Positions 40,414-57,262 of a stretch of DNA of 64,000 bases are shown here, piece after piece; position 1 is the stretch's first letter; every line of letters begins with the position of its first letter. This DNA is from an uncultured Chloroflexota bacterium (GTDB lineage: Bacteria; Chloroflexota; UBA11872; VXNJ01). Position numbers and translations under genes: made by a program. The stretch covers positions 4,787-68,786 of the forward strand of contig CAJWLF010000013.1 of assembly GCA_913043205.1 (NCBI GenBank). The letters are read 5' to 3'. The notes under the pieces were generated by a model. That model saw nothing but the letters and a program-made list of their open reading frames with translations, was not told where the DNA came from and did no database searches.

Positions 40414-41664
40414 CTACCCAAATCGTTCGGGCTTGGTCATACTCAAGTCGAAGCCAGGTTCTTCGCCAGTAATTAGTCTCGCAACCACCTGCCCTGTTAC
40501 CGGCCCCAATGATAAACCTATCATTGCATGCCCTGCCGCAAAAACTAAATTATTCAAACGCTCACTTCGTCCAAGCAAAGGCAACCCATCAGGGGTACAA
40601 GGTCTGAGCCCCCGCCAAGTTTCTACATGACCCAGAGAATCCACCCCATTTAAATAACGTGCAGCCCCTTTGTTGATTGCATTTAATCTACGTTCATTAA
40701 TCCCTAAATCCATCCCTACCATCTCCAATGTACCCGCCAAACGAAGATTCGGCCCCATGGGTGTCACTGCTACTCGAGATTCGACCAGCAACATAGGAAC
40801 GTTGAATGATTCGACAGGACGAGCGTAGGTGATGCTGTAACCCTTAGCAGGCTGTATAACTGCTCTTAGTCTGAGCATAGCAGCTAATTCAGGAGTCCAT
40901 GCTCCAGAAGCCAAAACCACTTGCTCTGGCATGAAATCTCCCCGGGTTGTTCTAACCTTAATTATTTGGGCATCTTTTGTTTCAAATCCAACGGCTTCAG
41001 CCTCATTAATGAGAGTCACACCTTTGTCAACAGCATGTTGAGCCAACCCGTCGACAAACCTAGCAGGATCAACATGCGCATCGTCGGGATAGTGAATCAC
41101 CCCAGCCAGGCCTTCGCGTAGTTCAGGCACTAGCCTTATGGCCGCCGATCCCAAATGCACCGTACTCGGAATATTAGCTTTTCTCATTAAATCAGCTTCG
41201 TGTAACCCTGATTGCATTCCCTTATCAGAGTCATACACATAGAACAGACCCCGCCGCTCATAATGAGAATCAACTTCCAATTGATCCGACCACTCGGAAA
41301 ATAGGCCCCGACTAGCTAAATGCAAATCCCGCAATAGAGGTACAGCACGGTCTACATGTTCCTGATTGGCAAAAGAACGGAATTTCATCAGCCAGCGAAA
41401 AAGATTTAGATCAATACGAGGCCTTATATAGAAAGGACTTTCCGGATCGAACATCCATTTCAATCCCTCACCCATAACACCAGGAGCAGCCAGCGGCACA
41501 GAATGGCTGGGACAAACCAGCCCAGCATTCCCATAAGACGAGGCAAGCTCGTCACGACCTAAATCTACTACTGTTACATCGCATCCCAGATCGGCGAGGC
41601 AATACGCAGAAGATATCCCCATTATGCCACCACCAATTATTAGCACATCAGTGTTATTACTCAT
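40414..41664 (-). CDS. FAD-dependent oxidoreductase (DadA / D-amino-acid dehydrogenase-like)
   Basis: The N-terminal dinucleotide fold is DVLIIGGGIMGISSAYCLADLG. Length is 416 aa. Confidence 0.85.
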   Translation of the reverse strand: MSNNTDVLIIGGGIMGISSAYCLADLGCDVTVVDLGRDELASSYGNAGLVCPSHSVPLAAPGVMGEGLKWMFDPESPFYIRPRIDLNLFRWLMKFRSFANQEHVDRAVPLLRDLHLASRGLFSEWSDQLEVDSHYERRGLFYVYDSDKGMQSGLHEADLMRKANIPSTVHLGSAAIRLVPELREGLAGVIHYPDDAHVDPARFVDGLAQHAVDKGVTLINEAEAVGFETKDAQIIKVRTTRGDFMPEQVVLASGAWTPELAAMLRLRAVIQPAKGYSITYARPVESFNVPMLLVESRVAVTPMGPNLRLAGTLEMVGMDLGINERRLNAINKGAARYLNGVDSLGHVETWRGLRPCTPDGLPLLGRSERLNNLVFAAGHAMIGLSLGPVTGQVVARLITGEEPGFDLSMTKPERFG

Positions 41665-41718: not shown

Positions 41719-44700
41719 TCAGAACTTCCGCTTTGTTGAGGGATCGTCATAAAGCATCTCGGCATAGGTAGCCACATCTACTTCAAATTCGCCATCATGA
41801 CGTTCCGGTCTTTCGGCAACTACCGTGTCGGTAGTGATAATTGCACAAGCAACACTAACCGCTGCTGCAAGAGCATGCTGGGAAACTAGTAGCGGGTCAA
41901 TTATTCCAGATTCAAACAAGTCTATAAATTTTCCAGTCACGGAATCATACCCATTCCAGAAAGACCCAAAGTCGATACGAGCCAGAATCCCACCAGGGTC
42001 TTCCCCTGCATTAACTACAATCGATTTAAATGGATCGTCGAGCGCTTTCCGCATTGCAGACACTCCAGCACCGACATCGCTCTCTTCCGGCAATTCCGGA
42101 AGAGAGCGGGCCGCGTGTAAATAGGCAGCTCCACCACCAGGCACCACTCCACTTGTCAATGCTGAACGGACTGACTTAACAGCATCATCGGCAAGCTGTA
42201 ACCGTCTCTTGACTTCTAATTGTGTTGCAGCTCCCACGTATATCGTTCCAATTCTCCCAGACAACCGCTGCAACTGTTTTTCAGCTATTTTCGTAGCATT
42301 CGACCTGTCTCTTTCCCGAACTCGTTCCACAATCTGCAGCTTGCGTCTCTCAAGTCCATCTTCCCGATCGGCTCCATTTACAATTACAGCAGATTTCATG
42401 TCGACCACTACGCGCTGTGCTTTCCCTAATACATTGACATCGATAGAGTTCCAGGGACGCCCAATTGCGTCACCAATAACCTGACCTCCCGTCACTGCGG
42501 CAACATCCATCAAAACTTCACTGCCAGACAAATCTAACGAATTGGTTACTACTGGACACACACGCGGACCATCCTGTCGCCAATTAGCTCTCAAAGCTCC
42601 GAGTGTTTCGGTTGGGAAGTCCTCAGCAATTAAAACAACATCAGTAACGATATTTGCGTTGGTAAAAACATCAAACAGTAATGCCAAATCTCTTATCAGT
42701 ACAGAGCCTAAAATCGCAACGATATATGGGGATTCGATGACAGTTTGCGAACGATCAGCATCATCCACAAAGAATGCATCTGTCAAACTTGCCTCGGCCT
42801 GAAATCCATTATTAATTCTTATAGTTGTTTCGACACCTCTACCTTGCCGAACATCTATCGCTCCATCATCTCCAGTATGGTCCACGATCTGTGTCACCGC
42901 AGTAGCGATTTCGGAATCACGAGAAGAAACTCGAGCCACCCTCTCGACTTCTGCCTTACTGGAAATCTCGCGCGCATGCTCTCTCAAATAAGCATCTACA
43001 TAGTTTGCAGCCAATCTAATCCCACTGCCAATTGACATCGGGCTTCTACCGGCAGCAATCTGCATGTCAGCCTCACGAACAATAGCTTGAGCGAGAACCA
43101 TAGCCGTGGTTGTACCGTCACCAGCCATTGACTCTGTATGCAAAGCCGCCTCGCGCAAAAGCTGGGCTCCCAGATCTTCTATAGGGTCAGGTAATTCTAT
43201 TTCTCGAGCAACATCGGCCCCGTCTCTGGTTACTGCCGGACAATAACTTCCTGCTAAACCTCTACGTTCCAGCACCACGCTCATACCGGTCGGCCCATGT
43301 GTAACCTTGACAACATCCGCCAATTTATCTACCCCGCTATGCAGACTCCTACGACCATTGTCACCAAAAAGAATCTCAGTTGTACGACGCTCAGGCTGAG
43401 ATTGGTTTACTTCATTACCCATGCCGGGAATTTCAATATCCTCTATCTTTTCCGTGTGCCGAATGGCAGTCTCAGTGGTGAGTATCGACACAGCCGTACT
43501 GGTAGCACTACGCAGAGAACTAGAGACCACGTCAAGTGGGTCTAAAACACCAGCTTCGAATACATTTACACAACTCCTCGATAGCGCATCAAACCCGTAC
43601 TCGATATCATCTTCAGATTCAATTTTTTCAACAATCAGTTGACCATCTAACCCCGCGTTAATGGCAATTTGCTCAGTGGGCCGCTGAAGCGCTTCCCGCA
43701 CAATACCTACACCAGTAGCCTGATCCCCATGAACATCTAACACATCTAATGCCGATCTAGCCCATAGTAGAGATCGTCCACCACCAGGAAGAACACCATT
43801 GTCATACGCCGCTCGACAGGCAGAAACAGCATTTTCAGTCCTTTGACACAGTTCAGTCCTCTCGGTTCCAGTAGAGGCCGAGACTTCAATGGTGATCATC
43901 TTGCCTGAAAGACGCGTAATACGATTTTTGATCAGATCAGCCTGAGTGTGATTCCTAGTTCGATCAGCTTCAGATTGCATAGCCGATATACGACTGGCAA
44001 TTCGAGCAGGATCACCCTTTGGACCTACAATCAAAAATTCTTTTGGGCCAACCACGACACGCTCTGCCCTTCCGAATACTTCAGAATTTACATTGTCCCA
44101 AGACCGACCAAATTCATCAGACACAAACGTGCCTCCAGTCACTATGGCTAAGTCCTCGCATACTTCGCTACGACTGAGCCCAGCAACTGGGTTGCTTGCA
44201 ATAACTAATTGAAGATTTTCATTCTTGTTTGCCGCAAGAACGTCGGATAATGCAACCTCATCCACAGAATCGCACATAACAAAAACGGACGTCACATCAT
44301 TGTCAACTAATGAATCCAACAAGCGTCTAATTTCACCAAATTCAACTATTCGCCGATCGGTTATAAGTATGTATGGATTGTCTAATTCGGCTTTTCCATA
44401 AACCGTGTTAACGAAGGCTGAAGATACATAGCCTTCGTCCATACTTACCCCAGTAGATCGCCTCAACTGAGACTGCAACCCACGCCCTTCTTCAACCACA
44501 ACACCACCATTTGGCTGTGTTTCAAGAATAGCTTTTGCTGCTAGTTCTCCAAGTACATTGCTATTAGCGGAAACAGTGCCAACCTGAGTAAGCACGTTCT
44601 CATTTCGAGCGTCGACAGATATTCTCTTTAGTTCTTCAAGAACAACACCACTAGCCAACTCAATCCCACGACGCAACATCATGGGATTTGCACCTGCTGC

Positions 44701-45087
44701 TATATTTTTGAGTCCCGCATGCAACATTTCTTGCGCAAGGATGGTTGCAGACGTGGTGCCATCCCCAGCCCACCATGACGCCTCAGACGCTGCCTCAATA
44801 ATCAATTTGGCTCCCATATTTTCGTACTCATCCCGCAAATTAATCGACCGAGCAATAGATATCCCATCATTTGTTATCACGGGACGAAAGGGAGGCGTTT
44901 GCAGCAACACATTCTGGCATAGAGGACCAAGCGTAATTTTTGTTGTGTCAGCAACAGCATCAACTCCTCGCCCCAAGGCAAAACGGGCCTCGGAATCAAA
45001 AATCATTTCAGATTTTGATGAGCGAACCGGCTTAGGGCGAGATGGAGTTCCTGAACTTCCCAGAATGAATGCTTTTGAGTCTTCCAT
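41719..45087 (-). CDS. Tandem-fused double chaperonin: two complete GroEL/Cpn60-family modules in one 1122-aa polypeptide
   Basis: Module 1 spans about aa 28-548. It reads FDSEARFALGRGVDAVADTTKITLGP ... AGDGTTSATILAQEML ... TENAVSACRAAYDNGVLPGGG ... VLDPLDVVSSSLRSATSTAVSILTTETAI. Module 2 spans about aa 571-1095. It reads ILFGDNGRRSLHSGVDKLADVVKVTHGP ... AGDGTTTAMVLAQAIV ... ADDAVKSVRSALTSGVVPGGG ... IIDPLLVSQHALAAAVSVACAIITTDTVV. Each module is colinear with E. coli GroEL over its full length. The linker is about 22 aa with no stop. The true start may alternatively be the ATG at 45006 (MIFDSEAR...). Confidence 0.8.
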   Translation of the reverse strand: MEDSKAFILGSSGTPSRPKPVRSSKSEMIFDSEARFALGRGVDAVADTTKITLGPLCQNVLLQTPPFRPVITNDGISIARSINLRDEYENMGAKLIIEAASEASWWAGDGTTSATILAQEMLHAGLKNIAAGANPMMLRRGIELASGVVLEELKRISVDARNENVLTQVGTVSANSNVLGELAAKAILETQPNGGVVVEEGRGLQSQLRRSTGVSMDEGYVSSAFVNTVYGKAELDNPYILITDRRIVEFGEIRRLLDSLVDNDVTSVFVMCDSVDEVALSDVLAANKNENLQLVIASNPVAGLSRSEVCEDLAIVTGGTFVSDEFGRSWDNVNSEVFGRAERVVVGPKEFLIVGPKGDPARIASRISAMQSEADRTRNHTQADLIKNRITRLSGKMITIEVSASTGTERTELCQRTENAVSACRAAYDNGVLPGGGRSLLWARSALDVLDVHGDQATGVGIVREALQRPTEQIAINAGLDGQLIVEKIESEDDIEYGFDALSRSCVNVFEAGVLDPLDVVSSSLRSATSTAVSILTTETAIRHTEKIEDIEIPGMGNEVNQSQPERRTTEILFGDNGRRSLHSGVDKLADVVKVTHGPTGMSVVLERRGLAGSYCPAVTRDGADVAREIELPDPIEDLGAQLLREAALHTESMAGDGTTTAMVLAQAIVREADMQIAAGRSPMSIGSGIRLAANYVDAYLREHAREISSKAEVERVARVSSRDSEIATAVTQIVDHTGDDGAIDVRQGRGVETTIRINNGFQAEASLTDAFFVDDADRSQTVIESPYIVAILGSVLIRDLALLFDVFTNANIVTDVVLIAEDFPTETLGALRANWRQDGPRVCPVVTNSLDLSGSEVLMDVAAVTGGQVIGDAIGRPWNSIDVNVLGKAQRVVVDMKSAVIVNGADREDGLERRKLQIVERVRERDRSNATKIAEKQLQRLSGRIGTIYVGAATQLEVKRRLQLADDAVKSVRSALTSGVVPGGGAAYLHAARSLPELPEESDVGAGVSAMRKALDDPFKSIVVNAGEDPGGILARIDFGSFWNGYDSVTGKFIDLFESGIIDPLLVSQHALAAAVSVACAIITTDTVVAERPERHDGEFEVDVATYAEMLYDDPSTKRKF

Positions 45088-45276: not shown

Positions 45277-46938
45277 GTGCGCGATCCATCCTTAGAACCC
45301 ATAACAACAAGACGGCTTGGCCGAGCCAAATCCATTTATCACGATATGGACGCCTTACTGCCACTAAAACGAGGTGCAGATTACGTCGCTGATACGATAA
45401 AGCTATCATTAGGACCGACTACAACCACCGTGCTAATCGATAACGTCGGCGAATTACCGATCTCTGCCCAAGATGGAACCTCCATCGCAAATTCGATCAA
45501 AGCACCTAATAGATTAGAAGATATCGGAAGCCATCTTATGCGCGATGGTATCTCGACAATGTCAAAGAATATTAGAGATGGGACCTCCACGGCCGCCACC
45601 CTAGCACAAAGTATCATCGAGCACGGTGTTGCCCAAATTGCAACTGGAACGAATGCCATGATTTTGACCCGAGGGATAGAGGCTGCGTCTAGAGCAGTCG
45701 AACGGGAAATTAGGAGTTTTTCGCAACCAGCAGACACAAGCGACACACTCATATCAGTAGCAACCACTTGCAGCGAAAATGCTGCTCTCGGAGAACGAAT
45801 CGCAGAGATGATTGCTCACTTAGGGCCCGAAGCCAACATAGGTGTTAGGGCTGAGCCTGTAGTTGGAGTGCATCCTTTCTACAGTCCTGGCATGCAAATG
45901 AATCGCGGATGGTATTCACCTCATCTGACAACAAACGAAGAAGGAACCGAAGCAATACTAGAAGACGCATTAGTGTTCATTACTAGCTCAGTCATACATG
46001 GATCTGAAACAATGGGGCTACTGCTTTCGAAACTAGCTAGTTACGAAAGGCCCTTTTTGATTATTGCCGACGACATAGATGAGGCAGCTCTTAAAGTATT
46101 GGTCGTCAACAAAACAAACGGGGCAATAAATGCTTTCGCTATCCAGGCACCTAGTTACGGGGATCATAAACTAGCCATTCTTGAAGATATAGCAGTATTT
46201 ACCGGTGGGAAAGTAGTTAATAACGTTACTATGGCATTATCCAATATTGGCTCCGAATTAGGCGACAATCTAGGATTGGCAACCCGTGTTGTAGCCAATA
46301 GACGCGAATCCGTGATTACTACCGGTGGTGGCAGCGAAGAACAAATAAAATCACGTATGGACCATATTTCAACAGAGCTCGAATCAATCACAGACGAAGA
46401 AGGGAGAGCAATGCTAAGACAGCGTTGGGGAACCCTAGGAAAGGGGGTGGGGCAAATCATTTTCGGTGCCCCTACCGAACCTGAGCGTAGGGAACTTCGC
46501 CGAACCCTTGAAAAAACAATTCAGGTTACAAGAGCAGGGTTGAGAGAAGGAGTTGTGGCAGGTGGAGGAATCGCGTTTCTAACTGCAGCAAATACATTGG
46601 CAACTACTAAATGGGCAGACGATGAGCAAGCGGGAGCAATATGCCTAACAAGTTCGCTAAAAAGACCTACAGAACAGATAGCCATCAATAGCGGACACGC
46701 GGGATCTACAATCATCTCCCAAATATATGATCTTGATCCTGGGTACGGATATGACGCTATTACAGGGAATTATGTAAACATGAAGGAAGCTGGAATAATA
46801 GATGCAACTTCAGTGACTATTCATGCTTTGCGAATTGCATGCAGTATTGCAGTCAATTTATTAAAAACCAACGTGGCTATCCATTACGCGCCGAGTGCAA
46901 AATGGCCAAAAGCCCCGGAGCGCCCTGTCAGCAATTGA
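45277..46938 (+). CDS. Highly divergent GroEL/Cpn60-like protein (553 aa), divergently transcribed from the double chaperonin
   Basis: Contains ADTIKLSLGP ... DGTSTAATLAQSII ... TRAGLREGVVAGGGIAFL ... GIIDATSVTIHALRIACSIAVNLL, colinear with GroEL. The conserved GPKGRN loop is replaced by GPTTTT. The position equivalent to GroEL D398 is K (EKTIQ). Confidence 0.75.
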   Translation: MRDPSLEPITTRRLGRAKSIYHDMDALLPLKRGADYVADTIKLSLGPTTTTVLIDNVGELPISAQDGTSIANSIKAPNRLEDIGSHLMRDGISTMSKNIRDGTSTAATLAQSIIEHGVAQIATGTNAMILTRGIEAASRAVEREIRSFSQPADTSDTLISVATTCSENAALGERIAEMIAHLGPEANIGVRAEPVVGVHPFYSPGMQMNRGWYSPHLTTNEEGTEAILEDALVFITSSVIHGSETMGLLLSKLASYERPFLIIADDIDEAALKVLVVNKTNGAINAFAIQAPSYGDHKLAILEDIAVFTGGKVVNNVTMALSNIGSELGDNLGLATRVVANRRESVITTGGGSEEQIKSRMDHISTELESITDEEGRAMLRQRWGTLGKGVGQIIFGAPTEPERRELRRTLEKTIQVTRAGLREGVVAGGGIAFLTAANTLATTKWADDEQAGAICLTSSLKRPTEQIAINSGHAGSTIISQIYDLDPGYGYDAITGNYVNMKEAGIIDATSVTIHALRIACSIAVNLLKTNVAIHYAPSAKWPKAPERPVSN

Positions 46939-47144
46939 GTAGATTCTTAAACTAAATTCGCAAAGTGTTATCTCCGTATCCTAGAACCAAAACGGTACAT
47001 TCCGATTGGCTAATGGCTAATTTGGTAATTATTCAATTCGAACTGATGAAGACTAATATAGAACTTTTCATTAGAATAATGGTGCAGTCTTAATTATTGA
47101 CATTACACATCGCAACGTGTCGGGCAGTTGTAGTCACTTAAGTC

Positions 47145-49532
47145 ATGTTTCACGAAAGAGAGCAGTTGGTGGCCATAATCGAAAAAGACATCCAAAAGTC
47201 TAGGAACAAAGAAAGGATTTCCAGTCTTCGAAATCGAGCAATAACTTGGGAAGACTCTCCTGTTCGAGGCGAGCGCCTGAGGCTAGTCACTGAATCCTAT
47301 AAGCAAACTGAGGGACAAGGGGTGGCTGTTCGGAGGGCAAAGGCGTTAGCTCACACTTTGACAAATAACGCCATTCAGATTCGCGATGATGAATTGTTTG
47401 CAGGTCTTCCACAGCGCGCCGTTTATGGATCGGATTCACTGCACTTCAATAACCCAAGACACTGGGAAAGTGCTATGGATTACCCAGAGCTGACCGGTGG
47501 TATTTTCCCCGTACATAAAGAAATACCAGAAAACTTACAAGAGCATCTCGACTACTGGCAGGGACAGAAATTAGCTCGAGCAGTAGTCGCGGAAAATATG
47601 ACTCCGGAGATAAAGAAGGCCATGGAGTTCGGTGCGTTGTCAGTATCCGGCTGGGTGCAAGGACATTCGAATGCAGGATTCGACCGAGTGCTCGAATTAG
47701 GCTTAGAAGGAATCAAAGCCGAAGCAGAATCCAAACTTACAGAATTGCAGTCCGCAGATATAGATGAAGGACAAGACTTTTTACAAGGTGTGCTTATAGC
47801 TTGTGAAGGGGTAATCCAGCACGCAAAACGTTATGCCGATTTGGCAAGAGATAATGCAATTTCTGAGCCGGATTCTTCACGAAGAGCAGAATTGCTTCGT
47901 ATTGCTGATACTTGTGATAGAGTCCCGGCTCAACCAGCCAGTAATTTCCACGAAGCCCTTCAGTGCATATGGTTTGTACAGCGAGGGGTAGACATGGAAA
48001 TGGGAGATGCAGCGGCCCTAGCCAATGGATGGGGGAGAGTCGACCAATATTTATACCCCTACTACAGGTCAGACATCGATTCTGGAAACATAACCGACGA
48101 TGAAGTAAGGCTTTTACTGACAGAATTCTACCTGAAATTAAATCGAGCATATCAAGACACACTAATACTGCTCGGTGGACTAACAACAGAAGGGAAAGAT
48201 GGAACTAACGAACTTTCCTACATGTTGATGGAAATTCACAGAGACCAGGGACTTCTTATTGATATCGATGCACGTGTTCACTCTAAAACCCCCTCTGATT
48301 TCGTTCATTTGTGTGCCGAAGTAACACAAAAAAACCTAGGGTTTTCGTTCTTTAATGATGAACCTACCATCGCCGCACTCGAACGTATCGGCATACCAAA
48401 AGAGATTGCCGTTCAATATTCTCCTGTGGGATGCGTTGAAAATATCGTGCCTGGGTATGCCACTCCCACGACGATGGATAATCAAGTCAATGTCGCCAAA
48501 TGTCTGGAACTGGCGTTAAACGACGGTGTCTGCATGCTCACGGGCACTAGAATTGGCCCAGAGACAGGTGATCCAGCTAATTTCAAATCTTTTGACGACG
48601 TATGGGATGCCTTTGTAACTCAGTTAAATTATCTTGTTGATTTGGGTTGCCAGGGCACCAGTATCGTTCAAAAGGGTCAGGCAGGGCGCCTGCCGTTACC
48701 TTTCTATTCATCCACATGGTGGGATCCAATTAGCAAGGCCAAAGATCTTACAGAAGGTGGAGCAAGATATCCCTATTCAGGTTGCAACAATGTTGGTCTC
48801 AGTACTGCTGCCGACAGTCTTACAGCTATCAATAAATTAGTTTTTGAAGAACGTAAAGTCGACTGGCATGAACTGTTAGACGGTCTGAAGACAGATTTTG
48901 CTGGCAAAACAGATTTGCAAAATTCCCTGCTGGATTCCTCTCCAAAATATGGGAACGACAATGACGAAGCTGACCAAATGGCCTGCAAGGTGCATATGGC
49001 ACACTATGCAGCCCTCGAAGATAAAGTGACTGCTTTCGGGGGTCGTTACTTGCTGCTTATATTCAACACTAACCATCTGGTTGTCGTGTCGCATGGTTCT
49101 AGAACTGCTGCAACCCCAGATGGCAGAGGCGCACGTCAACCAGTCGGCATCAGTGTTTCGCCATCAGAAGGCAGAGATGTTTCTGGGCCAAAAGCTGCGA
49201 TGCGATCGATATGCAAGCTAGACCAAACAGCTATACCTGGTGGAGCTTCCTACATAATGGAATTAAACACCAAACACATTAAAAGCCCGAACGGAGATGG
49301 TGTTTCAACGGACCAGTTGGCTGATTTGCTCCAATACTATATCGACTTGGGGGGAATGAATTTGGCAATAAATGTCTTAGACCCTGAATGGATAGAAGAG
49401 GTTATGGATGACCCGACGAATAACCCCAACCTATCGGCACGGCTATACGGATGGAGCCAATACGTAAAGAACCTTGACCCACGATTACAGCAGTTTCTTC
49501 TTGACAGAACTAGACGATCATCGTCGGTTTAA
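47145..49532 (+). CDS. Glycyl radical enzyme of the PFL2 clade (pyruvate formate-lyase-like, glycerol dehydratase / CutC / HypD group)
   Basis: The N-terminal clade motif is GERLRLVTESYKQTEGQGVAVRRAKALAHTL ... DDELFAG. Also present is FHEALQCIWFVQ. The catalytic thiyl loop is YSPVGCVEN, with Cys at aa 430 and the adjacent Glu. The C-terminal glycyl-radical motif is ARLYGWSQY (RxxGWS), with Gly about 30 aa from the end. Length is 795 aa. Confidence 0.8.
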   Translation: MFHEREQLVAIIEKDIQKSRNKERISSLRNRAITWEDSPVRGERLRLVTESYKQTEGQGVAVRRAKALAHTLTNNAIQIRDDELFAGLPQRAVYGSDSLHFNNPRHWESAMDYPELTGGIFPVHKEIPENLQEHLDYWQGQKLARAVVAENMTPEIKKAMEFGALSVSGWVQGHSNAGFDRVLELGLEGIKAEAESKLTELQSADIDEGQDFLQGVLIACEGVIQHAKRYADLARDNAISEPDSSRRAELLRIADTCDRVPAQPASNFHEALQCIWFVQRGVDMEMGDAAALANGWGRVDQYLYPYYRSDIDSGNITDDEVRLLLTEFYLKLNRAYQDTLILLGGLTTEGKDGTNELSYMLMEIHRDQGLLIDIDARVHSKTPSDFVHLCAEVTQKNLGFSFFNDEPTIAALERIGIPKEIAVQYSPVGCVENIVPGYATPTTMDNQVNVAKCLELALNDGVCMLTGTRIGPETGDPANFKSFDDVWDAFVTQLNYLVDLGCQGTSIVQKGQAGRLPLPFYSSTWWDPISKAKDLTEGGARYPYSGCNNVGLSTAADSLTAINKLVFEERKVDWHELLDGLKTDFAGKTDLQNSLLDSSPKYGNDNDEADQMACKVHMAHYAALEDKVTAFGGRYLLLIFNTNHLVVVSHGSRTAATPDGRGARQPVGISVSPSEGRDVSGPKAAMRSICKLDQTAIPGGASYIMELNTKHIKSPNGDGVSTDQLADLLQYYIDLGGMNLAINVLDPEWIEEVMDDPTNNPNLSARLYGWSQYVKNLDPRLQQFLLDRTRRSSSV

Positions 49533-49556
49533 TCCTATCAAGCAAGTTAAGCTTTA

Positions 49557-49973
49557 GTGGTCAATCAGCCGGCTAGGTCCTTATCTCCTGATTCGACGGG
49601 CGACGGAATTTGGCACGATGTTGCCAGCACAGGTGATTTGATCGATGGTAAGTCGATTCTAGTTCAGATAAACAAACAGCCCGTTGTAGTTTGCCTAAGC
49701 CAAGGTCAATATTACGCAATTGGGCATAATTGCCCTCACTATGATGCCCCCATGGTAGAAGGACAATTAGTAGGAAATAAAATTATATGTCCGTGGCACT
49801 GGTGGGAATTCGACCTAGATACCGGACACTGTCTCTATGCACCAACTGAACAAATAACAGAAATGTTTTTTAGCAGTGAATTTATGGGCAATCCTCAAAG
49901 CGTCAAACTTCCTATATACCCTATACGTACAGAAGCTGGCCGCATACTCATCCAATTATCTTCGGAATCATAG
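49557..49973 (+). CDS. Rieske [2Fe-2S] domain protein (NirD-like small Rieske ferredoxin)
   Basis: The Rieske ligands are CPHYDAPMVEG and CPWHWWEF. Length is 138 aa. It starts 24 nt after the GRE stop. Confidence 0.8.
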   Translation: MVNQPARSLSPDSTGDGIWHDVASTGDLIDGKSILVQINKQPVVVCLSQGQYYAIGHNCPHYDAPMVEGQLVGNKIICPWHWWEFDLDTGHCLYAPTEQITEMFFSSEFMGNPQSVKLPIYPIRTEAGRILIQLSSES

Positions 49974-50040
49974 GTCCGCACAAACAACTACTCAAACTCG
50001 CTGCTCAGCTTTAGGCCACCGATAAATACGTGTTTTAGAG

Positions 50041-50970
50041 TCAGCTGTCCAGCAACTCTGCTTTTTCCAATGCAGACCATACCGTCTCTTGGTCTGATTG
50101 GCTTAAGGGCATTAGTGGTGGCCTAACAACACATCTGTCTACGATGCCCAGCCTATTAAGAGCAGCTTTAATACGGGCTCTACAGTCCCGTGCTGGCGTA
50201 CCGAAAATGACTTGTTCTAATGGTAGCAACCTGTCCCAAATCTGCTGCCCCAACTCATAATCACCAGTTTTTGCCGCATTTAGCATTTTGACTTGTAATT
50301 CAGTAGCCAAAGTGCCAAATCCAATTAAGGCTCCGTCAGCTCCCATCACCAATGATTCATATATAAATGGATCATTGCCTGTTAACAGAGTTATTCTCCG
50401 TGAAGCTGAATTCAAGGCATCTCTGACCGAGATGAATGTCTGCGCATCAAAAGAAGCCTCTTTTAGGCCGATGACCTGAGGTATCTCTACTAAGCCCCCG
50501 AGTATTTCAGCAGACAGAATCACTCCACCGAGAGAAGGGGTCAGATTGAACAAAATCATAGGTATATCAGCATCAGCTATCGCAGAGTGATATGCGTACG
50601 GAAGCTCAAATGGAAGAGGATTTCCCTGATACGCTGGAATAGGAAAAACCAGAACAGCGTCGGCCCCTGCAGACTTTAGATCTCGAGCACGCTGTACAGC
50701 CTCCTCTGTATTTATAGCAAGCAGACCGGATACTATTGGAGTCGAATCTCCTATCGTCAGCTTTACAGTCTCTACAACTGACAGTCTTTCCTCCCACGAC
50801 AGTTGTGGAGCCTCACCGAGTTCTGCGTTTACAGCCACCGCACTAATACCTTGGGGCTCAAGCCATTTCATATATGACTTTAGATTTTCTAGATCCGGCT
50901 TATAGTCCTCAGTCATAGGCAGTATGGTGGCAGGGATTATCCCTTTTATATCGTCACTGGTCAGTGCCAT
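50041..50970 (-). CDS. DapA-family (dihydrodipicolinate synthase / N-acetylneuraminate lyase superfamily) Schiff-base aldolase
   Basis: The Schiff-base Lys context is VIGLKEAS. The protein is a TIM-barrel family member of typical length, 309 aa. Confidence 0.8.
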   Translation of the reverse strand: MALTSDDIKGIIPATILPMTEDYKPDLENLKSYMKWLEPQGISAVAVNAELGEAPQLSWEERLSVVETVKLTIGDSTPIVSGLLAINTEEAVQRARDLKSAGADAVLVFPIPAYQGNPLPFELPYAYHSAIADADIPMILFNLTPSLGGVILSAEILGGLVEIPQVIGLKEASFDAQTFISVRDALNSASRRITLLTGNDPFIYESLVMGADGALIGFGTLATELQVKMLNAAKTGDYELGQQIWDRLLPLEQVIFGTPARDCRARIKAALNRLGIVDRCVVRPPLMPLSQSDQETVWSALEKAELLDS

Positions 50971-50987
50971 TTTAATTCCCTTCCTAT

Positions 50988-52145
50988 CTAATAGTTTTGT
51001 CTGTACAGCTCTGTTATTTCATCAATTGTTGCAATTCTAGGATTATTGCCCGGACTACCAGACGCTATCGCATCTTCAGCCATTTTAACGACCGATCGTT
51101 CGAATAGGTCCAAATCAGCCCCTGTTTGGCTTAGTGTTGGCACAGCCAAAATTTCAGTTATCTCTCTAACTTTGTCTATACCACAATTAGCCGCAGTTAT
51201 TGAATCCAGCCCCCCAACTTCACATCCCAATGCGTCAGCTATTGACGCATACCTCTGCGGAGCAGATCCCAAACTAAAAGCCATGACACTCTGCAGCAAT
51301 ATTGAATTGCACAGTCCATGTGGAAGATGAAACACAGCCCCTATCGGGCGTGCCATTCCATGAACTAGAGCTACTGATGAATTGGCAAAGGCCATTCCGG
51401 CCTGCATGGATGCAAATGTCATATCGTCCCGTGCTTCTTCGTCATAGTCCTCTGAGCATGCCCTAACGATGCTGGCTGATATTCGCCTAATTGCAGACAG
51501 AGCCAAATCATCGGTAATGGGTTGAGCTTTGCGAGACACATAGGCCTCTATGGCATGAGTAAGAGCGTCCACCCCTGCATATATTGATGGCCGTAATGGA
51601 GCTGTGTCTGCCAGAGCCGGATCGGAAAACGACACGTCCGGCAACAATTCCAAACTGGAAATTAGCATCTTTACATCCCTCTCTTCGTCAGTAATGATGC
51701 TAAATGGGGTCACTTCCGCGCCCGTGCCGGCAGTCGTACTGAGACATATAAGAGGTGGCCTACCAGTTTGCACCTTGTTGGCACCCTCAAGTTTCGGAAG
51801 ACTGCTATTCGCAGAAACTGCCCTGACAGCAATCGCCTTTGCCGCATCCATAGGACTACCACCACCCAATCCTATAACTATGTCAGAATTGAAAGAGTGA
51901 AACACCTTTAGTCCAGCCTCGACCATTTCAACTGTTGGCTCCGCTATGACTCCATCGTACTGAATTGTGGCAATCCCAGCATTCTCCAATAACTCCAAGA
52001 CATCTTGGGCAGCAGCAGAAGCTATGACGTGAGGATCCGTAACCACTAATGCACGACTTCCACCTAACTTAGTTACACTATCTCCTACTGCCTTCCTGCA
52101 TCCTCTACCCGTGTAAACATCCTGTGGAGCATGAAATTCAGCCAT
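50988..52145 (-). CDS. Iron-containing (group III) alcohol dehydrogenase
   Basis: Contains GLGGGSPMDAAKAIAV and His-rich metal-site motifs. Length is 385 aa. Confidence 0.85.
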   Translation of the reverse strand: MAEFHAPQDVYTGRGCRKAVGDSVTKLGGSRALVVTDPHVIASAAAQDVLELLENAGIATIQYDGVIAEPTVEMVEAGLKVFHSFNSDIVIGLGGGSPMDAAKAIAVRAVSANSSLPKLEGANKVQTGRPPLICLSTTAGTGAEVTPFSIITDEERDVKMLISSLELLPDVSFSDPALADTAPLRPSIYAGVDALTHAIEAYVSRKAQPITDDLALSAIRRISASIVRACSEDYDEEARDDMTFASMQAGMAFANSSVALVHGMARPIGAVFHLPHGLCNSILLQSVMAFSLGSAPQRYASIADALGCEVGGLDSITAANCGIDKVREITEILAVPTLSQTGADLDLFERSVVKMAEDAIASGSPGNNPRIATIDEITELYRQNY

Positions 52146-52196
52146 GCCTATTCTCCTTACTAAGTGGCATAATTCTAGATCCTCCTCCTTCCATAC

Positions 52197-52961
52197 CTAA
52201 CTGACTTTAAGACCTCCATCAACGACGATGGTGTCACCGGTAACAAAACTCGAAGCGTCTGACGAAAGAAAAATTGCCGCACCCACTAGATCATCCGGTT
52301 GCCCTAAACGACGCAAGGGTGTTTGATCTATGGCGGCTTGCCTTACATCATCATCATCAAGAATGGGCTTAGTCATAGACGTCTCAATAAATCCAGGAGC
52401 TATCAAGTTAACGCGAACATTATGTGAAGACCACTCCAACGAAAGAGATCTAGCCAAGGCAGATACAGCCCCTTTGGTAGCACCGTACAAATTTCTATTC
52501 ATTAAAGCCATTTCAGCTACAACGGAACTAATGAGGACAATCGAGCCGCCGCCAGAACTGATCATTCTGCGTCCGGCTTCTTGACAGCAAAACACCAACC
52601 CACGCACATTAGTATCGAAAACTTCATCATAGTTATCTTCAGATACATCAAGAAATGGAACCCGCTGCGATATACCGGCAGAAGCAATCAGGATATCAAG
52701 TTGTCCAAAAGCCTCGTCAAACTGCTTGTAGGCATTCCGAATTTCATCCGCATTTTTCACATCAGTAGGGATACCTAAAGTTTTTCGACCGAATCCAGAA
52801 ATTGTTTTTGTTACCTGATCTAAATCAGATTTCGTGCGTGATACAAGTGCAACATCGGCTCCAGCCTCTGCCAGACCCAGGGCTATCGATCGACCTATCC
52901 CTCGTCCAGCCCCTGTGATCAGGGCCGTCTTTCCTTGAAGGTCAAACATTCTTGCAGCCAA
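52197..52961 (-). CDS. Short-chain dehydrogenase/reductase (SDR)
   Basis: Contains TGAGRGIGRSIA and the catalytic YxxxK (YGATKGA). Confidence 0.85.
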   Translation of the reverse strand: MAARMFDLQGKTALITGAGRGIGRSIALGLAEAGADVALVSRTKSDLDQVTKTISGFGRKTLGIPTDVKNADEIRNAYKQFDEAFGQLDILIASAGISQRVPFLDVSEDNYDEVFDTNVRGLVFCCQEAGRRMISSGGGSIVLISSVVAEMALMNRNLYGATKGAVSALARSLSLEWSSHNVRVNLIAPGFIETSMTKPILDDDDVRQAAIDQTPLRRLGQPDDLVGAAIFLSSDASSFVTGDTIVVDGGLKVS

Positions 52962-52989
52962 TTAGAATCCTCCGTTCTTTACATGTAAT

Positions 52990-53721
52990 CTAATCATCAG
53001 TTTCATTTGCCTGACCAGAAAGCAATGAGCATAGAATTTCACTTTCAAAGCTTGAGTTGGCAGCTACTGAATCAGGATTGTTGAGTGATAAGGCAGATTT
53101 CAAATACGTGACTGCGGGCGGACTGTGATTTGCCAACCTCTCCACAATAGTCTTGACTGAATATTCAATGTCATCAGACTCAAACACGTTGACCACCAAT
53201 CCACAATCGTTAGCCTTAATAGACCCAATTCGGTCTCCAAGAAACAGCATGGCAACAGCCTGGCTGTAATTGATAGCACGTGTTAATAATGGAACCCCAC
53301 CCCAACCTGGAATCCAACCATTTGTTATTTCCGGGAAACCAAACTGAGCATCTTTTCGAGCAATTCTCATATCACAACTAAGGGCCAATTCCAGCCCGCC
53401 TCCCAGGCAATAGCCGTGAATACTAGCTACAGAAATTTGAGGTAAATTGCGAATCTTGTCGAGCACTCTGTGGCCGGTAGTCGTCCATCTATCTAATCCA
53501 TTGGAATCTAATTCACGTACAACTTTTAGATCAGCCCCTGCGCAAAAAGCTCGATCTCCGTTGCCAGCAAAAAGTACTACTCTATAACTGTCATCAACAC
53601 TGATACGGTCGACAGTTTCTTCAATCTGAGACAGCATCTCCCAATTGATAGCATTTAGCACGTCTGGGCGATTCAATGTGATACGCAGAACACCTTCACT
53701 AAGTTCGTCTGTATATATCAA
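52990..53721 (-). CDS. Enoyl-CoA hydratase/isomerase (crotonase fold)
   Basis: Contains FCAGADLK and the later GLGGGLELAL ... catalytic region. Confidence 0.85.
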   Translation of the reverse strand: MIYTDELSEGVLRITLNRPDVLNAINWEMLSQIEETVDRISVDDSYRVVLFAGNGDRAFCAGADLKVVRELDSNGLDRWTTTGHRVLDKIRNLPQISVASIHGYCLGGGLELALSCDMRIARKDAQFGFPEITNGWIPGWGGVPLLTRAINYSQAVAMLFLGDRIGSIKANDCGLVVNVFESDDIEYSVKTIVERLANHSPPAVTYLKSALSLNNPDSVAANSSFESEILCSLLSGQANETDD

Positions 53722-53751
53722 TTCAGATCTCCCACATTCACTTAAGCGTCG

Positions 53752-55272
53752 CTATTCCAAGAACAAGGATGTTGCCATCAAATCGAAGTCGTCAACAATA
53801 GGTTTGAATTCCATTAATCCCAATACATCTTTTTCGAGTTGCACCCCTGGAGCCAGCTCGATCAACTTTATGCCGTCATCTGTTAATTCAAAAACTGCAC
53901 GCTCAGAAATAAATAACACTTGCTGGCCACGACGCAGTGCCTCTTTCCCACTGAACGTAATATGCTCAACTTTTTTCACAAATTTTGCAGCCTTACCAAC
54001 ATCATGAACCTTTACATTTCCGTCCGTCACTTCAACATTTGCCTTTACCCCAAACGTTCCACAAAACACTATCTTTCGCGCACTCTGAGTGATATCGATA
54101 AACCCACCACAACCAGCAAGAATTCTTCCAAAGCGACTTACATTCACATTCCCTTCGACATCAGCCTGAGCCATTCCTAAAAAGGCTATGTCTAGACCAC
54201 CTCCTTGGTAAAAATCGAATTGATAGGGAGCATCTAGTATCGCCGTAGGGTTCGACATGGCTCCAAAGGCCACACCTGTCACTGGCCACCCACCCCATGC
54301 ACCTTGCTCAGTAGTAAAAGTTACCTTCTCCATCATCCCTATATCCTCTGCAGCACTAGGGACTCCATCCGACATGCCAAACCCTATGTTTACCATCTGA
54401 CCCTCTTCAAGTTCTTGAGCAGCTCTCCTGGTAATAAGCAGCCTTTGATCCAGTTCCTGATCGGGATAGTCTGGGTCTTGCAAACGTTCTACTCCGCAAT
54501 AATAGGGATTGAACTGCTCAACTAGTGTTTGCGGCTGCGATTCATCTACTACAATCGCTCCAATCACATGCCCGGGCACTTTTACCTGCCGAGGATCTAT
54601 CGTCCTAGCATCCACCACCCGAGCAACCTGAGCTATAGAGCTTCCACCATGATTGCTAGCAGCCGTCGCCTGAGACAACATTTCAAACCAGCCCGCCTCA
54701 TGTTCAAGACTGATATTACCTAATTGGTCCGCAGTCGTACCGCGCACTATTGCTACGTCAGGAGGAGGAATCTTGTAGTAAAGATGTTCCTCTCCATCCA
54801 TTTCTACATATTTCACCAAGTCTTCTTTGGTTGCAGTGTTTAGCTTGCCACCATCAATACGAGGATCAACGAATGTTCCAAGTCCTATACGACTCAACAT
54901 CCCAGGATGACCACCGGCAACCCGACGCATTAATTGACTAAGTACCCCCTGTGGAAAGTTATAAGCCTCTACATCACCTGACAGGGCCAGACTAGCTATA
55001 GCGGGCGACATACCATAATGCCCCAGAATTACCCTCTTAATCATCCCTGACAAGGCTAACCTATCAGTGCCTGCCCCGGCTTGATCGCCCAGTCCGCTGG
55101 TATGTACGATAGTCAGATCAGATGGGTGCCCAGTGTTTTCATATCGTCTAGCAAGAGCTGCAATTGTAAAGTCAGGGACATTTATAGCCCCGTTACCACC
55201 AAGATATACAACATCACCATCTTGGATCACCTGTATAGCATCGTCAGCCGGACGTATCTTTGATTCAAACAT
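53752..55272 (-). CDS. Family I CoA-transferase with fused subunits, YdiF-like acyl-CoA:acetate/short-chain-acid CoA-transferase
   Basis: Contains PQGVLSQLMRRVAGGHPGMLSRIGLGTFVDPRIDGGKLNTATKEDLVKYVEMDGEEHLYYK. This is near-colinear with E. coli YdiF (PQGVLTQ ... GIGTFVDPRQQGGKLNEVTKEDLIKLVEFDNKEYLYYK). Confidence 0.8.
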   Translation of the reverse strand: MFESKIRPADDAIQVIQDGDVVYLGGNGAINVPDFTIAALARRYENTGHPSDLTIVHTSGLGDQAGAGTDRLALSGMIKRVILGHYGMSPAIASLALSGDVEAYNFPQGVLSQLMRRVAGGHPGMLSRIGLGTFVDPRIDGGKLNTATKEDLVKYVEMDGEEHLYYKIPPPDVAIVRGTTADQLGNISLEHEAGWFEMLSQATAASNHGGSSIAQVARVVDARTIDPRQVKVPGHVIGAIVVDESQPQTLVEQFNPYYCGVERLQDPDYPDQELDQRLLITRRAAQELEEGQMVNIGFGMSDGVPSAAEDIGMMEKVTFTTEQGAWGGWPVTGVAFGAMSNPTAILDAPYQFDFYQGGGLDIAFLGMAQADVEGNVNVSRFGRILAGCGGFIDITQSARKIVFCGTFGVKANVEVTDGNVKVHDVGKAAKFVKKVEHITFSGKEALRRGQQVLFISERAVFELTDDGIKLIELAPGVQLEKDVLGLMEFKPIVDDFDLMATSLFLE

Positions 55273-55300
55273 CAGGACACATCCATCAGAGTACTAAATA

Positions 55301-56182
55301 CTATCCTTTGATACCGGTTAGGGTAATTCCTTCAATAAATCTACGCTGCCCAAAGAAGAACATGATCACCATTGGAAGCGTAAACATAGTGGAGCATGCC
55401 ATAAGCAAGTCCCACCTAGCACCATATAGAGTAAAGAATGTTCGCAAACCTATTGAAAGGGTATATCTGTCGTTATCACGAAGATATATGAGTGGACCAA
55501 TAAAATCATTCCACGTGAATATCACTTCAAACAGAACAAGAGTCGTAATGGCCGGCTTCATTAATGGCAGGACAACACTCCAGAAAATTTGTAGTTCATT
55601 CGCTCCATCCACACGCGCAGCATCTGAAAGATCCATAGGTATCGTTCTGTAAAACTGCCTAAGCAAGAAAATATAAAAGGCATTGCCAAAAAACGAAGGA
55701 ACGATTAACGGCAGTAATGTATTGAGCCAGCCAATTTGGTGAAACGCTATGTACATAGGAATCATGCGTACCTGAAAAGGCAGCATCATAGTGGCCAACA
55801 CCAGTATAAAAACCTGATCACGATACGGCCAGTTCAATCTGGCAAAACCATAGGCGATAAATGTATTACTAATCAATGCTCCGATTGTCGACCAAACAAC
55901 AAGAGCAAAGGAATTACCCAGATACGTCCAAAACGGTATCACCTCTAATACATCAGGGAAATTCATCCAGCGCGGGTTCACTGGCCACAGGTCTGGCGGA
56001 ACCTTAAATATTTCGGATTGCTCCTTTAAGGAACTCATAAACAACCAGTACAAGGGCAATGCAAATATGATGCCAAAGCCAGCAAGAAACAGGTGTACAC
56101 CGAACCTACCAAGAAGCTCCCTGCCTCTATCGGCTAAGCTTTTAGAGCGCCTAGTAACAACTACCGTTGACGTACTATTCAT
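55301..56182 (-). CDS. Carbohydrate ABC transporter permease (MalG/UgpE-like)
   Basis: The EAA-like motif is DAARVDGANELQIFWSVVLP. The protein has 6 TM helices. Confidence 0.85.
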   Translation of the reverse strand: MNSTSTVVVTRRSKSLADRGRELLGRFGVHLFLAGFGIIFALPLYWLFMSSLKEQSEIFKVPPDLWPVNPRWMNFPDVLEVIPFWTYLGNSFALVVWSTIGALISNTFIAYGFARLNWPYRDQVFILVLATMMLPFQVRMIPMYIAFHQIGWLNTLLPLIVPSFFGNAFYIFLLRQFYRTIPMDLSDAARVDGANELQIFWSVVLPLMKPAITTLVLFEVIFTWNDFIGPLIYLRDNDRYTLSIGLRTFFTLYGARWDLLMACSTMFTLPMVIMFFFGQRRFIEGITLTGIKG

Positions 56183-57056: not shown

Positions 57057-57262
57057 CTAAAACCAGCACCTTAGCCAATCGACCATAAAAACTTCGCCAA
57101 TTACTTATAGAACTATCTTCATTGGCAATGTAATCACATAGCCCTATCAAAGCATCACCATAAAACCTTGGGGATAGATATAAACTTGCAATTGGGCCGG
57201 AGACTCCATCGCTGGAGACCTCCGACCCAATAAATTAAGCATTTATTGAAGCAGGGAGAAAA

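Follow-up and report, generated by a model that had tools for sequence, protein, structure and literature searches.

The open reading frame at positions 47145 to 49532 of the 64-kb stretch of DNA analyzed here (the window) encodes a real, complete homolog of the oxygen-sensitive glycyl radical enzymes (GREs), with an intact Cys loop and an intact Gly loop. The DNA is from a surface-ocean Chloroflexota bacterium. It belongs to a small clade found in Chloroflexota and Armatimonadota that is sister to PFL2, and is not an ordinary PFL2 member. The conserved partner of this GRE is a Rieske protein encoded immediately downstream, not the chaperonin-like genes encoded nearby. The explanation that we consider most likely, and to which we give about an even chance of being correct, is that the protein is a functional member of the GRE clade that has a Rieske accessory partner and is activated in trans. 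The locus contains the following features.

41719-45087, minus strand: tandem double GroEL-like fusion of 1122 aa, transcribed divergently from the 553-aa paralog
45277-46938, plus strand: divergent GroEL paralog of 553 aa, in which Lys replaces Asp398, ending 206 nt 5' of the GRE gene
46939-47144, no strand assigned: intergenic gap of 206 nt, at the position of a LacI-GRE2-activase cassette in 69%-identical relatives
47145-49532, plus strand: GRE homolog of 795 aa, YG (Tyr-Gly) subclade, with a CxE Cys loop (Cys430, Glu432) and the Gly loop RLYGWS (Gly769)
49557-49973, plus strand: Rieske-type [2Fe-2S] ferredoxin of 138 aa, with CPH...CPWH ligands (Pfam Rieske, 4e-18)
50041-58750, minus strand: convergent catabolic operon encoding a DHDPS-family enzyme, Fe-ADH, SDR, enoyl-CoA hydratase, a fused CoA-transferase, two ABC permeases and, at 57263-58750, a solute-binding protein
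59033-60646, minus strand: GroEL of 537 aa, the third chaperonin gene of the window (NCBIfam GroEL equivalog, 604 bits vs. a cutoff of 582)

A GRE homolog with a remodeled active site

The reading frame is intact and open over the full 795 aa. In a Pfam scan, the two models suggested as a check by the first-pass annotation both match above their gathering scores: PFL-like PF02901 at residues 23-641 (E 8e-150, 501 bits), and Gly_radical PF01228 at residues 669-773 (E 3.4e-11, 44 bits vs. a cutoff of 22.2). The closest solved structures are those of B12-independent glycerol dehydratase (GD; 1r8w, 1e-119) and then HypD (6vxc, 2e-107). An AF2 model, with a pLDDT of 92.2, has the 10-stranded β/α barrel and a TM score of 0.85 to 1r8w, 5i2g, and 6vxc, which upholds the GRE fold.

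The motifs by which the protein had been recognized from its sequence are all present. Residues 49-57 read TESYKQTEG, in agreement with the TESYKxTEG block. The catalytic GCVE is located within VGCVEN, which aligns with the Cys loop of 1r8w and 6vxc, and the C-terminal RLYGWS places Gly769, 26 residues before the C-terminus, on the radical Gly of the same two structures. Cys430 corresponds to Cys433 of GD and Cys434 of HypD, and is invariant in 32 aligned sequences. Arg766, Gly769, and Ser771 are also invariant, and Glu432 is unchanged in the 25 members of the clade, down to 37% identity, as is Gly769 throughout these 25. The segment G-C430-V-E432 thus contains the CxE motif that has been defined for GRE eliminases (PMC7077986). 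The strict GRE fingerprint is RVxG[FWY]x6-8[FL]x4Qx2[IV]x2R (PMC13450708), and the protein reads R-L-Y-G-W-x6-L-x4-Q-x2-L-x2-R, which differs conservatively at two positions, where Val and [IV] are each replaced by Leu. At the variable x of the fingerprint it has Tyr, vs. Ala, Ser, or Cys in characterized enzymes.

The earlier assignment to the PFL2 clade holds for the best match, but not for membership, because the score against TIGR01774 (PFL2/glycerol dehydratase) is 458 bits and the curated cutoff is 678.2. The protein is also far under all GRE equivalog cutoffs. NCBI gives relatives no more specific name than "pyruvate formate lyase family protein." The Gly_radical match is faint in P0009.

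Members of the sister clade have a bulky residue ahead of the radical Gly (R-x-[Y/F]-G), by which YG and FG types are distinguished. Tyr768 does not vary among 17 YG sequences. We considered Tyr as a unique hallmark and rejected this idea, as this position is occupied by His, Trp, Val, Thr, or Gly in other, uncharacterized GRE representatives. The bulky residue is also weakened as a hallmark by the FG-type paralog GRE2 of lineage L002, which has the loop RVFGFT and whose gene shares 4 bp with the 5' end of a canonical activase gene. A bulky residue before the Gly is thus compatible with an activase. Aminoacyl radical enzymes (AAREs, 2024) are recently recognized PFL-like variants with non-canonical radical loops, and loops of this type occur in our survey (RVATYS in L022 and L025). 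In AAREs the Gly itself is replaced and the adjacent activase is kept, whereas the window GRE keeps the Gly, alters the preceding residue, and has no activase beside it.

A further difference is a 15-residue deletion in the β2-β3 active-site segment, which is common to all 25 F/Y-G clade members and is found in none of the canonical relatives. This segment carries the substrate-contacting residue Phe333 in GD or Ser334 in HypD. Other changes in the active site include an insertion with a conserved Asp288 and a 3-residue deletion ahead of His174. Compared with the dehydratases that act on glycerol, propanediol, and hydroxyproline, the active site is therefore remodeled, and the substrate is presumably different.

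GD and the other PFL2-type 1,2-eliminases (propanediol dehydratase, CutC, HpsG, and IslA) are nonetheless the closest known enzymes in sequence (33-35% identity) and in fold. As in GD of C. butyricum, the window GRE has a CxE Cys loop, a Gly radical domain, and His174, the equivalent of a conserved GH. Unlike GD, it scores under the TIGR01774 cutoff, lacks the segment that bears Phe333, has Tyr and not Ala or Ser ahead of the radical Gly, and has Met444 aligned with Asp447 of GD. It also differs from GD-type eliminases in having a Rieske partner and no adjacent activase.

The window contains hydroxyproline-type genes (4-hydroxyproline epimerase-like, DHDPS-family, and FAD oxidase genes), and these prompted us to consider whether the GRE might be a HypD. 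Equivalents of HypD His160 and Asp339 are present (His174 and Asp338). However, the NF043068 score is 422 bits vs. a cutoff of 1100. Moreover, four HypD residues that have been shown to be essential, Asp278, Ser334, Phe340, and Tyr450 (PMC7077986), correspond in the alignment to 6vxc to Ala290, the deleted segment, Thr339, and Gln447, respectively. We therefore rejected this identity.

The GRE is under strong purifying selection, with dN/dS of 0.08 relative to L006 and 0.17 relative to L095. Constraint on the Gly radical domain (0.07 vs. 0.08 for the GRE) matches that on the remainder of the protein. The reading frame is intact in every lineage, and the GRE is among the best-conserved proteins of the locus; in L006 it is 90% identical, vs. 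58-80% for most neighbors.

The Rieske partner and the chaperonin-like genes

The Rieske gene begins 24 nt 3' of the GRE gene, and the closest solved relative of its product is the ferredoxin of naphthalene dioxygenase (2qpz). The first-pass annotation had reported the gene's location correctly, but treated it as incidental. It is instead found directly downstream and on the same strand in all eight YG lineages, and at none of 43 canonical GRE loci (those with 5 kb or more of sequence on each side; Fisher p ~1.6e-9). Its cluster ligands are invariant at 13 loci, and in L010 the GRE and Rieske genes overlap by 4 bp. To our knowledge, Rieske proteins are not among the known types of GRE subunit. 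The potentials of Rieske ferredoxins are too high for reducing an activase cluster.

A small Fe-S protein gene that is adjacent to, and co-conserved with, the gene for the catalytic subunit is also a property of HPAD (γ), benzylsuccinate synthase (BSS; β and γ), and MASS (β, γ, and δ). However, the subunits of these enzymes are HiPIP-like [4Fe-4S] or rubredoxin-like proteins, whereas the putative partner in the window is a Rieske [2Fe-2S] protein of the type used by oxygenase systems. These enzymes are also decarboxylases or X-succinate synthases with adjacent activases, whereas the window GRE is eliminase-like and has no adjacent activase. What the iron cofactors do in HPAD, BSS, and MASS is still described as enigmatic, with a proposed role of HPAD γ in reducing or protecting the radical (PMC13450708). 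Our literature search for GREs that are Rieske-linked, from Chloroflexota/SAR202, or from the surface ocean found nothing relevant.

A Cpn60-like gene does lie 206 nt upstream of the GRE gene, as described earlier, and a chaperonin-like cage that folds, activates, or shields the GRE had been proposed on the basis of this proximity. The divergent GroEL pair adjoins the GRE in the window and in L095, L006/L007, and the L002 group, the three closest lineages (GRE identity 69-97%). It is missing from the other five of the eight YG lineages, from all FG-type loci, and from all 43 canonical loci. Because the adjacency is confined in this way, the cage idea is not supported. In the L002 group, moreover, the Cpn60-like genes are separated from the window-type GRE by genes for a regulator, a second GRE, and an activase. 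The Cpn60-like genes also diverge much faster than does the GRE and are the fastest-diverging of the locus (47-51% identity where the GRE has 69-90%), and more distant tandem-GroEL fusions (P0246 and P0248) occur in unrelated contexts with no GRE alongside. We regard a role for the chaperonin set in GRE function as extremely improbable; its presence would reflect synteny inherited in one lineage, and not a functional partnership.

In relatives with 69-97% identity, the convergent catabolic operon at 50041-58750 remains in synteny with the GRE-Rieske pair. A promoter and terminator scan of positions 46800-50200 gave nothing over shuffled expectation. Multicopper oxidases and FAD oxidases are found among the neighboring gene contexts. 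Members of the GRE cluster were detected at Tara station 125, in free-living fractions from the surface and the mixed layer. In oxic water of this kind, a glycyl radical should be destroyed.

Absence of the activase and its traces in relatives

Pfam scans of all open reading frames of at least 100 aa that we judged to be genes revealed no radical-SAM protein in the 64-kb window, and a six-frame tblastn search of the window with a genuine GRE activase as query gave no match. The sole CxxxCxxC sequence in a six-frame scan of the window is in the reading frame of a Wzt ABC ATPase, ahead of its actual start, and does not belong to a radical-SAM protein. An additional 15 kb of flank (10 kb to the right, and to the left the 5.3 kb that remain before the contig ends) is likewise free of GRE activases; a radical-SAM/SPASM protein in this flank is unrelated to them (E 0.17). 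The earlier statement that the window has no activase gene thus stands, and now extends to ~79 kb of the source contig. The missing neighbor is unusual, because 42 of the 43 canonical GRE loci have an activase within 10 kb.

Relatives retain traces of an activase. In L002-L005, whose GRE is 69% identical to that of the window, the gene order is LacI-GRE2-AE-GRE-Rieske. A tblastn search of the 206-nt gap found no activase remnant. A decaying activase fragment does occupy the corresponding place in a 60%-identical relative, and is seen as a C-terminal relic directly 5' of the GRE gene in L001 and L016. Overall, a complete activase adjoins the GRE in only one of the eight YG lineages, and has been lost or has decayed in the other seven. 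An activase immediately outside the window, with the GRE in an ordinary anaerobic fermentative setting, had been named by the first-pass annotation as a finding that would make the chaperonin adjacency coincidental. An activase is indeed found directly upstream in the 69%-identical relative, but the setting is not ordinary fermentative.

A database of 5.8 billion proteins contains GRE orthologs with 60-90% identity, but no ortholog of the L002 activase above 53%. On the large contigs that carry GRE orthologs, no activase homolog was recognized among the best 120 matches. B12-binding radical-SAM genes near some GREs (L006 and L013/L014) were considered as alternative activators and rejected, as they are mutually 24% identical and absent elsewhere.

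Proposed activation in trans and alternative explanations

In the explanation that we favor, the GRE would be a functional, selectively maintained enzyme of an uncharacterized sister clade of PFL2/eliminase-type GREs. It would act with its dedicated Rieske [2Fe-2S] protein as a two-gene module, beside a catabolic operon for a substrate that is presumably imported by the ABC transporter. A radical on Gly769 would generate a thiyl radical on Cys430, which would abstract hydrogen from the substrate, and Glu432 of the CxE motif may serve as acid/base. The cognate radical-SAM activase was probably once encoded directly upstream and has since been deleted from the window locus, and therefore the GRE would need activation in trans, presumably at low oxygen, by an activase from another part of the genome. 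The Rieske protein may be an accessory Fe-S subunit or an electron-transfer partner, in a role like that of the small Fe-S proteins that accompany HPAD, BSS, and MASS; it could, for instance, quench or protect the radical or supply electrons.

Activation in trans has a precedent in E. coli TdcE, which is activated by PFL-AE (PMC13450708). Like TdcE, the window GRE has no adjacent activase of its own and could be activated by one encoded elsewhere. However, TdcE has the Gly loop of the native substrate of PFL-AE (RVSGYAV), whereas the window loop, RLYGWSQ, is unique. Because activase specificity has been reported to depend on the Gly loop, and cross-activation is rare, a generic activase may not act on RLYGWSQ. 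Also counted against the favored explanation are the ~79 kb free of an activase, the lack of orthologs above 53% for the L002 activase, the oxic-water source, the absence of Rieske proteins from the known types of GRE subunit, and the high potentials of Rieske ferredoxins.

Loss of the activase could instead mean that the orphaned GRE is a nonfunctional relic that is becoming a pseudogene. The deletion in the window and the decay in L001 and L016 fit this view, but the intact reading frames, the dN/dS of 0.08-0.17, and a degree of conservation that exceeds that of most neighbors make it very unlikely. Another view is that the fold has been reused by a protein that performs no radical chemistry and needs no activase, such as one that uses Cys and Glu for acid/base catalysis, or that functions in binding or scaffolding with the Rieske protein. 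The remodeled active site, the sub-threshold scores on curated GRE models, the weak Gly_radical matches in the window GRE and in P0009, and the loss of the activase from the locus are consistent with this possibility. However, Gly769, Arg766, Ser771, Cys430, and Glu432 are invariant across deep divergence, and the Gly radical domain is under full constraint, a pattern that would be difficult to reconcile with an obsolete radical relay. We therefore consider a nonradical function unlikely.

It is also conceivable that a GRE-fold enzyme works in an aerobe by means of an activase-independent or oxygen-adapted system. A route that involves the Rieske partner, and not a radical-SAM activase, would then generate, regenerate, or protect the radical on the Gly/Cys relay. 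The activase has been lost or has decayed in seven of eight YG lineages, yet the GRE remains under strong purifying selection and the Rieske gene is kept in all eight. The invariant Tyr768, the oxic surface and mixed-layer habitat, the multicopper and FAD oxidases in neighboring contexts, and the failure to find orthologs of the L002 activase in relatives also point in this direction. However, the Gly radical domain is complete and the fingerprint is kept apart from the two conservative departures, as would be expected for recognition by an activase; the sister FG-type GRE2 adjoins a canonical activase; and the absence of an activase is established for ~79 kb of contig. Furthermore, we know of no chemistry by which a Rieske cluster could abstract the Gly Cα hydrogen. 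An activase-independent or oxygen-adapted system appears unlikely to us. Its analogy would be to ribonucleotide reductases, whose classes I, II, and III share one barrel and use different radical initiators.

GREs are regarded as strictly anaerobic and as paired with an activase. The YG clade breaks this pattern, because its radical relay is intact and strongly constrained, the adjacent activase has been lost repeatedly, the Rieske gene is always present, and the organisms are free-living bacteria of oxic surface seawater. If the GRE is activated in trans, its Rieske protein would be a fourth, structurally new type of Fe-S accessory partner for the GRE superfamily, and the finding would also point to a new catabolic reaction in marine Chloroflexota. 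If the genomes prove to have no activase at all, then radical chemistry of the GRE fold, or a derivative of it, would be supported in aerobes by another route. Should this route be independent of an activase or adapted to oxygen, and involve the Rieske protein, it would be a PFL-like counterpart of the varied radical initiators of ribonucleotide reductase.

A GRE with a remodelled active site

The following reading frame encodes a protein that belongs to the superfamily of glycyl radical enzymes (GREs).

47145-49532, + strand: GRE homolog, an open reading frame of 795 aa with Pfam and structure matches

Pfam detects a PFL-like domain at residues 23-641 (8e-150) and a Gly_radical domain at residues 669-773 (3.4e-11). 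By sequence, the solved structures that come nearest are those of B12-independent glycerol dehydratase (GD; 1r8w, 1e-119) and HypD (6vxc, 2e-107). When aligned to both, VGC430VE432N falls on the Cys loop and R766-L-Y-G769-W-S on RVAGYS. These matches uphold the first-pass annotation, which had called the enzyme complete. The structural model suggested there agrees: a confident AlphaFold2 prediction from a 32-sequence alignment (pLDDT 92.2, pTM 0.92) superposes on 1r8w, 5i2g, and 6vxc with TM 0.85. The protein has a near-match to the published GRE fingerprint, RVxG[FWY]x6-8[FL]x4Qx2[IV]x2R (PMC13450708), with Leu replacing both Val and [IV].

Cys430, Glu432, Arg766, Gly769, and Ser771 are invariant in 25 clade sequences, with identity down to 37%. 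Relative to L006, a locus whose GRE is 90% identical, the whole GRE has a dN/dS of 0.08 and its Gly radical domain one of 0.07; relative to L095 (97%), the GRE ratio is 0.17. The best-conserved locus proteins versus L006 are a DHDPS-family enzyme (92%) and the GRE itself (90%), with other neighbours at 58-80% and Cpn60-like proteins at only 47-50%. The low dN/dS and high identity indicate that the GRE is not a decaying relic and that its radical domain is not relaxed. The Cys/Gly relay is intact and constrained, and we infer that the protein still works through a glycyl radical.

Across 45277-47550, the divergence from L095 clusters in the Cpn60 genes (90-92% amino acid identity) and the first ~133 GRE codons. 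Synonymous divergence is 0.09 in the GRE and 0.01-0.03 in downstream genes, a pattern suggesting that recombination has a boundary at the 5' end of the GRE gene or that this segment is hypervariable.

The GRE scores 458 bits against NCBIfam TIGR01774 (PFL2-3; cutoff 678.2) and falls far under every equivalog cutoff: HypD (422/1100), HpsG (402/1000), and CutC (316/1050). It groups with ~24 clusters (90% identity) from Chloroflexota and Armatimonadota, which share three traits. An aromatic residue precedes the radical Gly (R-[LMY]-Y-G-[WQ]-S or R-[LVI]-F-G-[YF]-S); the β2-β3 segment, which bears Phe333 of GD and Ser334 of HypD (PMC7077986), is 15 residues shorter; and a short insertion bearing conserved Asp288 accompanies a 3-residue deletion preceding His174. 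The enzyme belongs to a subclade of its own, in which the active site is remodelled. When 15 billion library proteins are clustered at 50% identity, the whole Tyr-Gly subclade is reduced to 1 representative and its Phe-Gly relatives to ~9. Because other uncharacterised GREs there have His, Trp, Val, Thr, or Gly in front of the radical Gly, Tyr at this position is unusual, not unique.

A separate set of homologs has Thr (RVATYS) or Ala (RVAAYN) in place of the radical Gly: L022 3885-6275 and L025 10001-12340, from Dehalococcoidales metagenome-assembled genomes, and protein P0026. An activase adjoins them wherever flanks exist, and they match aminoacyl radical enzymes described in 2024.

A Rieske neighbour and a lost activase

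The GRE's neighbours are as the first-pass annotation described, with a divergent Cpn60 paralog upstream and a Rieske gene 24 nt downstream. A same-strand Rieske gene directly follows the GRE in 8/8 Tyr-Gly lineages, in 0 Phe-Gly loci, and in 0/43 canonical GRE loci (at least 5 kb of flank on both sides; Fisher p ~1.6e-9, Tyr-Gly versus canonical). At L010 the GRE and Rieske genes share a 4-bp overlap, and CPH...CPWHxWEF is kept in the Rieske proteins of 13/13 loci examined. The Rieske gene is an obligate neighbour of this type of GRE. Its products resemble ferredoxins of oxygenase systems (for example, 2qpz), and the protein may serve the GRE as an accessory Fe-S partner, by analogy with the small subunits of HPAD, BSS, and MASS. 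No accessory systems are known besides these three, whose iron cofactors are still called enigmatic (PMC13450708).

The same annotation had reported no activase, and none emerged in the window from Pfam scans of its reading frames for radical-SAM proteins or from tblastn with a genuine GRE activase. The sole CxxxCxxC motif lies in an over-extended reading frame.

5174-6985, - strand: Wzt ABC ATPase, mechanical reading frame of 603 aa; same-contig gene calls start 37 codons later (566 aa)

The later start removes the motif from the protein, and we rejected it as a radical-SAM site. The window occupies positions 5293-69292 of the 249-kb Tara Oceans contig ERR599156 k127_907550; no GRE activase is present in the 5.3 kb to its left (to the contig end) or 10 kb to its right. 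The only radical-SAM protein in these flanks is of a type unrelated to GRE activases.

L113 15308-16405, ~3.7 kb past the window's left end: radical-SAM/SPASM protein, 365 aa, CNLRCVMC motif
32880-34412 (window): sulfatase

The SPASM gene adjoins a Trm112-like gene and one for a 752-aa protein with no assigned function; the SPASM gene may encode a sulfatase-maturase-like or peptide-modifying enzyme.

Ortholog loci (GRE identity 97, 90, 69, 61, 60, and 45-47%) were scored by tblastn. A full-length activase lies within 10 kb in 1/8 Tyr-Gly lineages, 0/4 Phe-Gly loci, and 42/43 canonical loci (Fisher p ~5e-7, Tyr-Gly versus canonical). The single Tyr-Gly lineage with an activase (L002-L005) has the order Cpn60(1121)-Cpn60(554)-LacI-GRE2-activase-GRE-Rieske, followed by the window's downstream operon. 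This order places a LacI-GRE2-activase cassette exactly at the window's 206-nt gap (46939-47144). In another lineage (L001 and L016, 98% nucleotide identity), a fragment corresponding to activase residues 196-310 sits directly upstream of the GRE. It lacks the cluster-binding N-terminus, differs between the two loci at ~8% of residues plus one indel, and is a decaying pseudogene. The window holds no detectable remnant. Thus, the GRE ancestrally had an activase directly upstream, which was lost from this locus.

Phe-Gly relatives at L020, L021, L042 (Armatimonadota), and L012-L014 (RVFGFS or RLFGYS) have no activase within their flanks, and sulfatases and arylsulfotransferases surround those at L013 and L014. 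The F/Y-G clade as a whole, and not just its Rieske-linked subclade, may therefore be marked by the lack of a neighbouring activase.

The window GRE would presumably be activated in trans, for which TdcE/PFL-AE is a precedent (PMC13450708). Against this stands the reported dependence of activase specificity on the Gly loop. The GRE2 loop reads RVFGFT, and GRE2 overlaps by 4 bp the start of a canonical activase (TIGR02494, 331 bits); hence an aromatic residue before Gly is compatible with activase pairing. If these genomes lacked an activase altogether, the module would instead be activase-independent or a non-radical GRE derivative.

Chaperonin genes

Three chaperonin genes occur in the window, and no GroES gene was seen beside any of them.

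59033-60646, - strand: GroEL, 537 aa, passes the GroEL equivalog cutoff
45277-46938, + strand: divergent GroEL paralog, 553 aa, Lys in place of hydrolysis residue Asp398
41719-45087, - strand: natural fusion of two GroEL-like modules in tandem, 1122 aa, Asp398 to Asn in the N-terminal half

The 553-aa protein and both halves of the fusion count as divergent group I paralogs and share 31-34% identity with E. coli GroEL. Tandem fusions (1072-1122 aa) form only ~9 clusters at 90% identity among 5.8 billion proteins, and their sources, where named or traced, resemble Chloroflexota-type metagenomes. The fusions change quickly (47-50% identity versus 70-90% in neighbouring genes). A chaperonin cage had been proposed to fold, activate, or shield the GRE. 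However, only in the three closest lineages do Cpn60 genes adjoin the GRE, and fusions at 34-35% identity reside in unrelated contexts. This proposal is not supported, and we attribute the adjacency to inherited synteny.

Substrate and habitat

Judged by active-site residues, the substrate is neither hydroxyproline nor glycerol. A convergent operon encodes an ABC importer, CoA-transferase, hydratase, SDR, Fe-ADH, and DHDPS-family enzyme, which suggests a small polar compound converted through an aldehyde. An aerobic hydroxyproline-catabolism-type gene set is scattered around the locus (63017-63985, 62091-63002, 40414-41664, and 35743-37158), comprising a 4-hydroxyproline epimerase-like protein (396 bits; cutoff 450), a DHDPS-family enzyme, an FAD (DAO) oxidase, and an aldehyde dehydrogenase. 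Despite these genes, identification of the GRE as HypD was rejected on its HypD score and differing active-site residues.

The GRE's 90% protein cluster has members from surface (SRF) and mixed-layer (MIX) samples of Tara station 125, and its relatives are annotated as Chloroflexota. The origin is oxic and marine. The real point of interest is that a surface-ocean, aerobe-like bacterium has a GRE of a Rieske-linked subclade with no activase next to it.
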